A stretch of DNA of 24,218 bases, from the IMG/VR virus record IMGVR_UViG_2537562231_000018; one strand, given 5' to 3'. The notes beneath the pieces were generated by a model. That model saw only the letters and a program-made list of their open reading frames with translations, ran no database searches and was not told where the DNA came from. A program made the position numbers and the translations under genes. Of the stretch, positions 1,256 through 2,109 are shown one piece after another. Numbering within the stretch: the first letter of the stretch is position 1; each line of letters opens with the position of its first letter. This DNA is from a virus. Lineage: Duplodnaviria; Heunggongvirae; Uroviricota; Caudoviricetes.

Positions 1256-1645
1256 TTATATATGACACAAAAAGCGACCACTAAAGTCGCTTTTTCTTAT
1301 GGTAACAGGCAATAACTCTCTCAGATATTTTTTAGCATTTTTTTGACCGCGCGTTTCCGGACGTATTCTGTTCTCCTGTCCCTTTATATCGTCGGAATAC
1401 CCGCCGCTCTTCAAATCCCATTCCCAACTCAGAATGTAGTCTGTTGACCGCTTGTTTATTTCGGTCAGGTTCACCGGTGAAACCGGAGTCCGGCGCGCCT
1501 TACGCAAACACTCTGCTCGTTTCTGTGCCGCCACTTTTCTTTTCTGGTCATCACTTAGCTGTACCATCACTTTTGCCCATCGTTCAGCTGCTCTCCGGTA
1601 CAGTCCTTTTTTCTCCAGACATTCTGCCACGTGATCATGTAGCAT
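1256..1645 (-). CDS. PerC-family transcriptional regulator (Pch-like)
   Basis: N-terminus DHVAECLEKKGLYRRAAERWAKVM matches the PerC/Pch signature (AE.LE.KGLxRRAA.RW) as I recall it. Preceded on its 5' side by a roughly 450-bp AT-rich tract. Confidence 0.65.
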   Translation of the reverse strand: MLHDHVAECLEKKGLYRRAAERWAKVMVQLSDDQKRKVAAQKRAECLRKARRTPVSPVNLTEINKRSTDYILSWEWDLKSGGYSDDIKGQENRIRPETRGQKNAKKYLRELLPVTIRKSDFSGRFLCHI

Positions 1646-2109
1646 AAGTGACCTCCGATTATCTACAGACTGCCATCCTGAATTTACCTTCCCTTAATGA
1701 AATAACAATAAAAAACAAACCACGCAAAAACAATAAAACAACACACAAAAAAACTAAATAATAAACAAAAATAATCACCTTATTTTATTATTTTTTGAGG
1801 GAGCAATTACTGAACAAAAAACGCTGACTATATACTCAAAACCAAACAACTATTCTGCCAATCAGGTATCATGGCAACACACGGAATTACCGTGTTTTTG
1901 CCTTCTCTGCCCATACAATACGGGCATATACTTCATTCTCTATTGTAATATTTCTATCCATGTGCCCCACTCCATTTACCTGTAAATAATATTCAAAATA
2001 TTTATCACAGAAATCGTTTTTGGCCATGAACTGAGCACACTATAAAGTCCGGAACTGACTCTTTGTTAAATTACCTTAACGTTACCAGTAACACCTTCAT
2101 AACAAAACA

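Follow-up and report, generated by a model that had tools for sequence, protein, structure and literature searches.

Gene order and cargo cassette at the right end of the prophage

The stretch analysed here (the window, 24,218 nt; IMG/VR virus record IMGVR_UViG_2537562231_000018, Caudoviricetes) is the entire draft contig ADUM01000122.1 of Escherichia coli 3431 (GCA_000184765.2), and our subject is a pch-type gene for a PerC-family regulator which lies near one end of it, preceded by a long AT-rich tract. Positions 1–4700 belong to a lambdoid prophage and, with the minus strand as reading direction, make up the right end of its late region; the gene is carried by that prophage, with Nu1, cosN, Rz, lysozyme, holin and the antiterminator gene Q around it. 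The features of the locus are as follows.

114–623: Nu1, small terminase subunit.
807–818, minus strand: cosN, the exact lambda cohesive-end 12-mer GGGCGGCGACCT (0 chance matches expected).
871–2127: replaceable cargo cassette of ylcI, pch and the AT tract, between cos and Rz, delimited by comparison with PhiR12_4.
1026–1250, plus strand: YlcI/YnfO-family (DUF3950) gene, between pch and cos and convergent with pch.
1256–1645, minus strand: PerC-family open reading frame (ORF) as sequenced, 129 amino acids (aa).
1269–1295: bidirectional terminator-type hairpin (A5-GCGAC ... GTCGC-T5) between ylcI and pch, folding energy −11.2 kcal/mol on the plus and −14.7 kcal/mol on the minus strand.
1332–1645, minus strand: pchA-type coding region (group-1 Pch, PerC family) interrupted by a 1-nt deletion; ATG at 1643–1645, natural stop TAA at 1332–1334.
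1646–2109, minus strand: AT-rich pch upstream region (putative promoter and leader, 33% GC), filling the 464-bp gap from the Rz stop side to the pch ATG.
1652–1656, minus strand: Shine-Dalgarno sequence GGAGG, 6 nt upstream of the ATG and kept in all variants.
1830–2040, minus strand: conserved non-coding block of 211 nt, strictly linked to group-1 pch.
2110–2576, minus strand: Rz/Rz1 spanin genes, with the Rz stop at 2110.
3064–3597: lysozyme.
3991–4197: holin.

In PhiR12_4, a phage without pch, homology to the window covers positions 1–870 and resumes only at 2128 (2128–3000), so that 871–2127 has the bounds of a replaceable cassette. The arrangement Rz-PerC-YlcI-Nu1 was found at a query coverage of at least 80% in 661 of 5,426 complete E. 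coli genomes, and the pch coding sequence in 673 of these genomes, with a median of three copies per genome. In these 673 genomes the 211-nt block has 1875 locations and the coding sequence 1877, and because the two co-occur the AT tract can be taken as part of the pch cassette. The block also remains with pch where the upstream neighbour differs: at locus L037 (835–1065) a Met-Lys-Thr tRNA cluster stands directly upstream of the cassette, and at locus L015 (41–1024) the block is closely preceded by the end of an IS66-family transposase gene. These two neighbours put the 5′ edge of the cassette near window positions 2036–2086.

The locus is thus very probably a pchA-type cargo cassette (a "moron") of a lambdoid prophage, self-contained and inserted between the Rz stop and cos. 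Taken in the direction of pch, it would consist of the conserved non-coding block of ~200 nt, a variable T-rich stretch, a 70-nt leader with GGAGG, a 104-codon pch gene and the bidirectional terminator, which would be common to pch and the convergent ylcI. The gene pchA, its position in prophages and its regulated promoter are already established, and the arrangement is present in RefSeq across hundreds of genomes.

Identity of the gene

A preliminary description of the window, made from its letters, had placed a PerC-family regulator between Rz and cos and called it prophage cargo of the PerC/Pch type, and both statements were confirmed. The ORF between cosN and the Rz stop matches the Pfam PerC family (PF06069) in a profile search with E = 2.3e-31 and a score of 108.4 bits (cutoff 22.6), although as sequenced only residues 1–66 align, to profile positions 1–66 of 90, which leaves the domain short of full length. 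Adding one T raises the score to 149 bits and extends the match to profile positions 1–89 of 90, and the resulting protein is identical to the 104-aa WP_001303878.1, ending in ...ARSKKC, whereas the 129-aa ORF as sequenced ends in an unrelated tail. NCBIfam held no family for either the as-sequenced or the repaired protein, and a sequence search for related solved structures returned none.

The allele was assigned with published primers that cover all five pch genes of O157:H7 (PMC6265319, Supplementary Table 2). The pchA primers pchAred50F, pchAred50R and pchA380F (the last at 1630–1662) and the primer pchABC380R (1332–1357) all align to the window with 0 mismatches, the pchB and pchC primers carry 1–13 mismatched bases, and the pchD and pchE primers found no match in the window. 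The nearest complete genomes, ML35 and O145:H28 RM12581, share 99.2–99.3% identity over a 2.1-kb query; in both of these, and in O157:H7 TW14359, which was retrieved separately with the coding sequence as query, WP_001303878.1 is annotated at the matching position as a 104-aa "PerC family transcriptional regulator". The same protein is named "PchABC family" by one source and occurs on >1000 contigs. Judged by the primers and by the identity of the repaired protein, the gene is pchA, a group-1 allele.

A frameshift in the deposited copy

1455–1457: frameshift site, a run of three T (T3) here against four (T4) in relatives, from the alignment to ML35 and RM12581.

The preliminary description had also taken the ORF at 1256–1645 as intact, and this part has to be given up. 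The frame shifts after codon 63, so that 63 PerC residues identical to those of PchA are followed by 66 out-of-frame residues, and about a quarter of the PerC domain is lost. The natural end at 1332–1334, which primer pchABC380R marks, is now out of frame; the 129-aa ORF passes it and overruns the gene's own terminator hairpin, which lies downstream of the true pch stop, and the 3′ boundary at 1256 is a product of the frameshift. GenBank calls the gene as 124 aa (EFU95398.1). Two findings had been named in the preliminary description as telling against its proposal, the lack of a PerC hit and an ORF that is a truncated remnant: the hit stands, and the second applies in part, in that the ORF is frameshifted after codon 63, probably through an assembly error.

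The shortened run was seen in this contig and nowhere else that we looked. Of 80 viral-contig loci, 77 have the T4 state and none has the T3 of the window. None of the 5,426 complete E. coli genomes matches the pch coding sequence at 100% (best 99.7%, 688 matching records), and in each of the 30 matches listed the 314-nt query aligns to 315 nt. A collection of 15 billion proteins likewise lacks the exact 129-aa sequence.

Assembly error or pseudogene

We consider the missing T to be most likely an error of this 2010-era draft assembly, in which case strain 3431 would carry an intact pchA. What favours this is the draft state of the contig, the presence of single-base deletions in four genes, private deletions that equal private substitutions in number, and an ORF that runs through its own terminator. 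Besides pch, one G is missing from Rz/Rz1 after 2280, which fuses the N-terminal part of Rz to the C-terminal frame of Rz1, and restoring it yields a 155-aa Rz; a 60-aa ORF has lost its start, with CC at 2906–2907 against CCC in relatives; and the antiterminator gene Q (7428–8248), a single 273-aa gene with T6 in strain B19374, has T5 at ~7763 and so falls into two overlapping ORFs, each of which keeps the Pfam Antiterm domain. Between genes, the T-run at 2972–2974 is also shortened by a private deletion. Positions 1–3141 hold four private 1-nt deletions and four private substitutions, and deletion-dominated, homopolymer-linked divergence is typical of early draft assemblies. Unlike these private deletions, the A7 run at 1747–1753 is common to 8 of 80 loci, with A8 in many relatives, and so represents a natural length polymorphism. 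The census of indels covers part of the contig, the remaining prophage being a mosaic with at most 96% identity to any single genome. Indels relative to the nearest genomes also occur at 3924, 4345–4353 and 4405, and include a 6-bp in-frame deletion in the YdfR/DUF1327 gene, a C8-versus-C7 run and an A-run deletion.

It is rather unlikely, in our estimate, that the frameshift is real and that strain 3431 has a defective prophage in decay, with pchA reduced to a pseudogene and Q, Rz/Rz1 and a small lysis-region gene inactivated as well. Several observations nevertheless speak for such decay and weigh against an assembly error: a single prophage has four broken genes and also IS66-family insertions (~12.6–15 kb and 21.9–22.9 kb), the deletion at 2280 lies outside a homopolymer, and public data contain a few other rare pch alleles with private frameshifts (P0021, P0023, P0035 and P0036), one of them from a 5.5-Mb contig. 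On the other hand, four of four lesions are single-base deletions, three of them in short homopolymer runs, and all are private to this draft contig; the private deletions are as many as the private substitutions, whilst natural divergence usually yields far fewer indels relative to substitutions; and the IS66-family ORFs at 12630–14965 have no obvious split. Were the deletion real, pchA would probably be non-functional, since the domain is conserved up to about residue 89. It is scarcely credible that the 129-aa product is a functional PerC variant made of a 63-residue N-terminal module and a new tail: its first 63 residues are those of PchA, it scores 108 bits against Pfam PerC and the alternative frame is open to position 1256, but conservation in the family reaches profile position 89 (PerC residue 88), the out-of-frame tail has no homologues and no match in a Pfam search, the ORF overruns the terminator and the allele occurs only in this contig. 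Slippage in transcription or translation as a way back into frame was rejected, since a run of only three bases is too short for it.

The single-base breaks in pchA and in at least three other genes (Rz/Rz1, Q and the small ORF) mean that ORF boundaries taken from the raw sequence of this draft contig are unreliable, and the virulence-regulator status of strain 3431 is not readable from this contig alone. A search for literature on strain 3431 or its accession found none.

The AT-rich upstream tract and its conserved block

1849–1877, minus strand: sole sigma-70-like match on the pch strand, TTGCCA / 17-nt spacer / AATAGT, 9 of 12 positions.
1879–1895, plus strand: hairpin ACACGG-AATTA-CCGTGT followed by TTTTT, with a 6-bp stem and a 5-nt loop.

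The upstream DNA, announced in the preliminary description as about 450 bp of A-rich, low-complexity sequence, proved to be 464 bp long, with the lowest GC content in the contig. Its core (1690–1800) has 21.6% GC and 55% A, and the 15 lowest-GC intervals of 200 bp in the 24-kb contig (15 of 15) all lie at 1601–1751, in a contig of 50.0% GC in which only 0.4% of such intervals have 30% GC or less. The AT-richness of the tract is well beyond chance.

Such a composition, AT-richer than its surroundings and with a core at the contig minimum, is what an H-NS-silenced promoter, as had been proposed, would show. The high-affinity H-NS motif TCGATAAATT, with up to 2 mismatches, has one site in the tract, and 20 in the contig against 22 expected. 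A check for phased A-tracts found none, the spacings of the A-runs being irregular (15.5, 8.5, 13.5 and 19). No H-NS chromatin immunoprecipitation data were found for the pch locus, the text and supplements of PMC4764244 holding no per-locus data for pch, although for O157 the same study reports H-NS cover over virulence loci acquired horizontally (PMC4764244). From the AT content and this coverage in O157, silencing of the tract by H-NS is plausible.

In a comparison of 49 distinct upstream variants, the block of ~200 nt (2036 to 1830) and the last 70 nt before the ATG, including the GGAGG, were highly conserved, whilst the T-rich middle of the region differed among variant classes. The block is far more stably folded than its shuffled controls (z = −4.4 for the sense strand, z = −3.2 for the antisense). 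Covariation over 29 sequences gave a term of +0.36 and one compensatory pair, the sequences being too similar to inform, and a search of positions 600–2700 against Rfam with E up to 1 returned no match. The one-to-one travel of the block with pch across 673 genomes, its fold in the sense strand and the lack of an Rfam family are what favours a role as RNA, and the block might be an undescribed cis-acting leader or regulatory RNA, possibly one that couples late read-through or an upstream start to pch expression; we hold this to be improbable, and the block may simply be protein-binding promoter DNA. A 46-aa ORF within it (1887–2027, minus strand) was rejected as a gene: its start is lost in one variant, its frame is shifted in another and most changes are non-synonymous, and it has no Pfam or NCBIfam match and no RefSeq annotation.

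The scan for sigma-70 sites gave 2 sites in the region against 4.3 expected by chance and located no promoter or transcription start; with fewer sites than chance, the match at 1849–1877 does not count as evidence of function.

The hairpin with a T-run that the preliminary description had marked on the plus strand is indeed present, at 1879–1895, and can be extended to 1874–1901, the longer form folding at about −11 kcal/mol on both strands. It is very unlikely that it serves as terminator for an antisense transcript or small RNA that crosses the pch promoter region. It fits the terminator pattern and lies within the conserved block, whose plus strand folds at z = −3.2, but the stem of 6 bp is weak, no gene is apparent upstream on the plus strand, and terminator-pattern matches in the region number 5 against 1.9 ± 1.4 expected. 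The only promoter-like match on the plus strand (1762–1791, 9 of 12 positions) ends ~88 nt upstream of the hairpin, and no Rfam family covers it. The natural variants also favour the opposite strand: two common variants keep the hairpin paired only in the pch-sense RNA, among them a common C-to-T change that breaks the plus-strand stem and leaves a G-U pair in the sense RNA.

Proposed working of the intact gene

20114–20165, plus strand: DicF small RNA (sRNA) gene, Rfam RF00039, 75 bits, on the same contig as pchA.

PchA binds the very AT-rich LEE1/ler DNA of the LEE (locus of enterocyte effacement), reduces its occupancy by H-NS, StpA and Hha, and de-represses ler and the LEE (PMC4764244). 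Full expression of the LEE requires the group-1 pch genes and not those of groups 2 and 3, and expression of the group-1 genes rises with the SOS response and prophage induction (PMC6265319). In a host that carries the LEE, an intact copy at this locus would accordingly be expected to loosen the H-NS/StpA/Hha complex at LEE1 and so to turn on the type III secretion island. Its expression would be driven by the native promoter in the upstream region, which is treated as that of pchA in the literature and is reported to be activated by LrhA and by Lrp/butyrate (PMC4456613, PMC7279287, PMC13012123). Read-through of the late phage transcript is a second possible route to pch expression, since no minus-strand terminator was found between Rz and pch; the lack of one would agree with the rise of group-1 expression under SOS and prophage induction.

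At the level of translation, DicF is reported to relieve an inhibitory fold in the pchA mRNA (PMC7769764) and to activate its translation (Melson and Kendall 2019, as summarised in PMC7769764 and PMC7873438), and the dicF copy on this contig could in the same way unlock pchA. The predicted duplex of DicF with codons 16–35 of pch has an energy of −48.9 kcal/mol against −38.1 ± 3.7 kcal/mol for shuffled DicF, the best shuffle reaching −50.6 kcal/mol; this prediction, marginally better than the shuffles, is suggestive only.

Other features of the contig

Downstream of Q, on the minus strand, lies a gene for a 616-aa carbohydrate esterase of the SASA family (4499–6349; DUF1737, SASA and DUF6645 domains). 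Two further RNAs were recognised by Rfam, both on the minus strand: the sRNA STnc100 (6487–6659, 101 bits) and the antitoxin RNA sok (10272–10446, 115 bits), the latter in a hok/sok-type module for which a related genome annotates hokD. A unit of three ORFs (134, 115 and 512 aa), arranged as is usual for an IS66-family element, occupies plus-strand positions 12630–14965, and the regions of related genomes that match the window carry annotated IS66-family transposases; a 331-aa ORF with Pfam IS66 transposase domains (21948–22943, plus strand) also lies within the prophage. No tRNA genes were detected anywhere in the contig.

Comparison with known systems

The closest counterpart is PchA of enterohaemorrhagic E. 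coli O157:H7 (WP_001303878.1), with which the locus shares the same protein once one base is restored, the same flanks, to which the pchA deletion primers align without mismatch, the same upstream block, and the same order Rz-pch-ylcI-Nu1 as in the 661 complete genomes; the difference is that the copy deposited here is frameshifted after residue 63. The group-1 paralogues PchB and PchC are encoded by a near-identical gene with the upstream block and the 70-nt leader in common, and are set apart by primers that are off by 1–13 bases and by a T-rich middle that varies by class. PchD and PchE (groups 2 and 3) are likewise PerC-family proteins carried on prophage elements, but affect the LEE little (PMC6265319), and the window has no match to their primers.

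PerC of enteropathogenic E. coli (EPEC) E2348/69 (plasmid pEAF, NC_011603.1) belongs to the same Pfam family, with 47% identity over residues 2–88, and also activates LEE1 according to the literature. It is plasmid-borne in perABC, shorter and in another regulatory context, whereas the gene here is prophage cargo.

In its build the pch cassette is like the morons of lambdoid late regions, such as bor near the lysis genes, which are self-contained, AT-rich pieces of cargo with their own terminator, set between genes of the late operon: it too is self-contained, AT-rich and replaceable between phages. Unlike such morons, its cargo is a transcriptional regulator that acts on a distant pathogenicity island.
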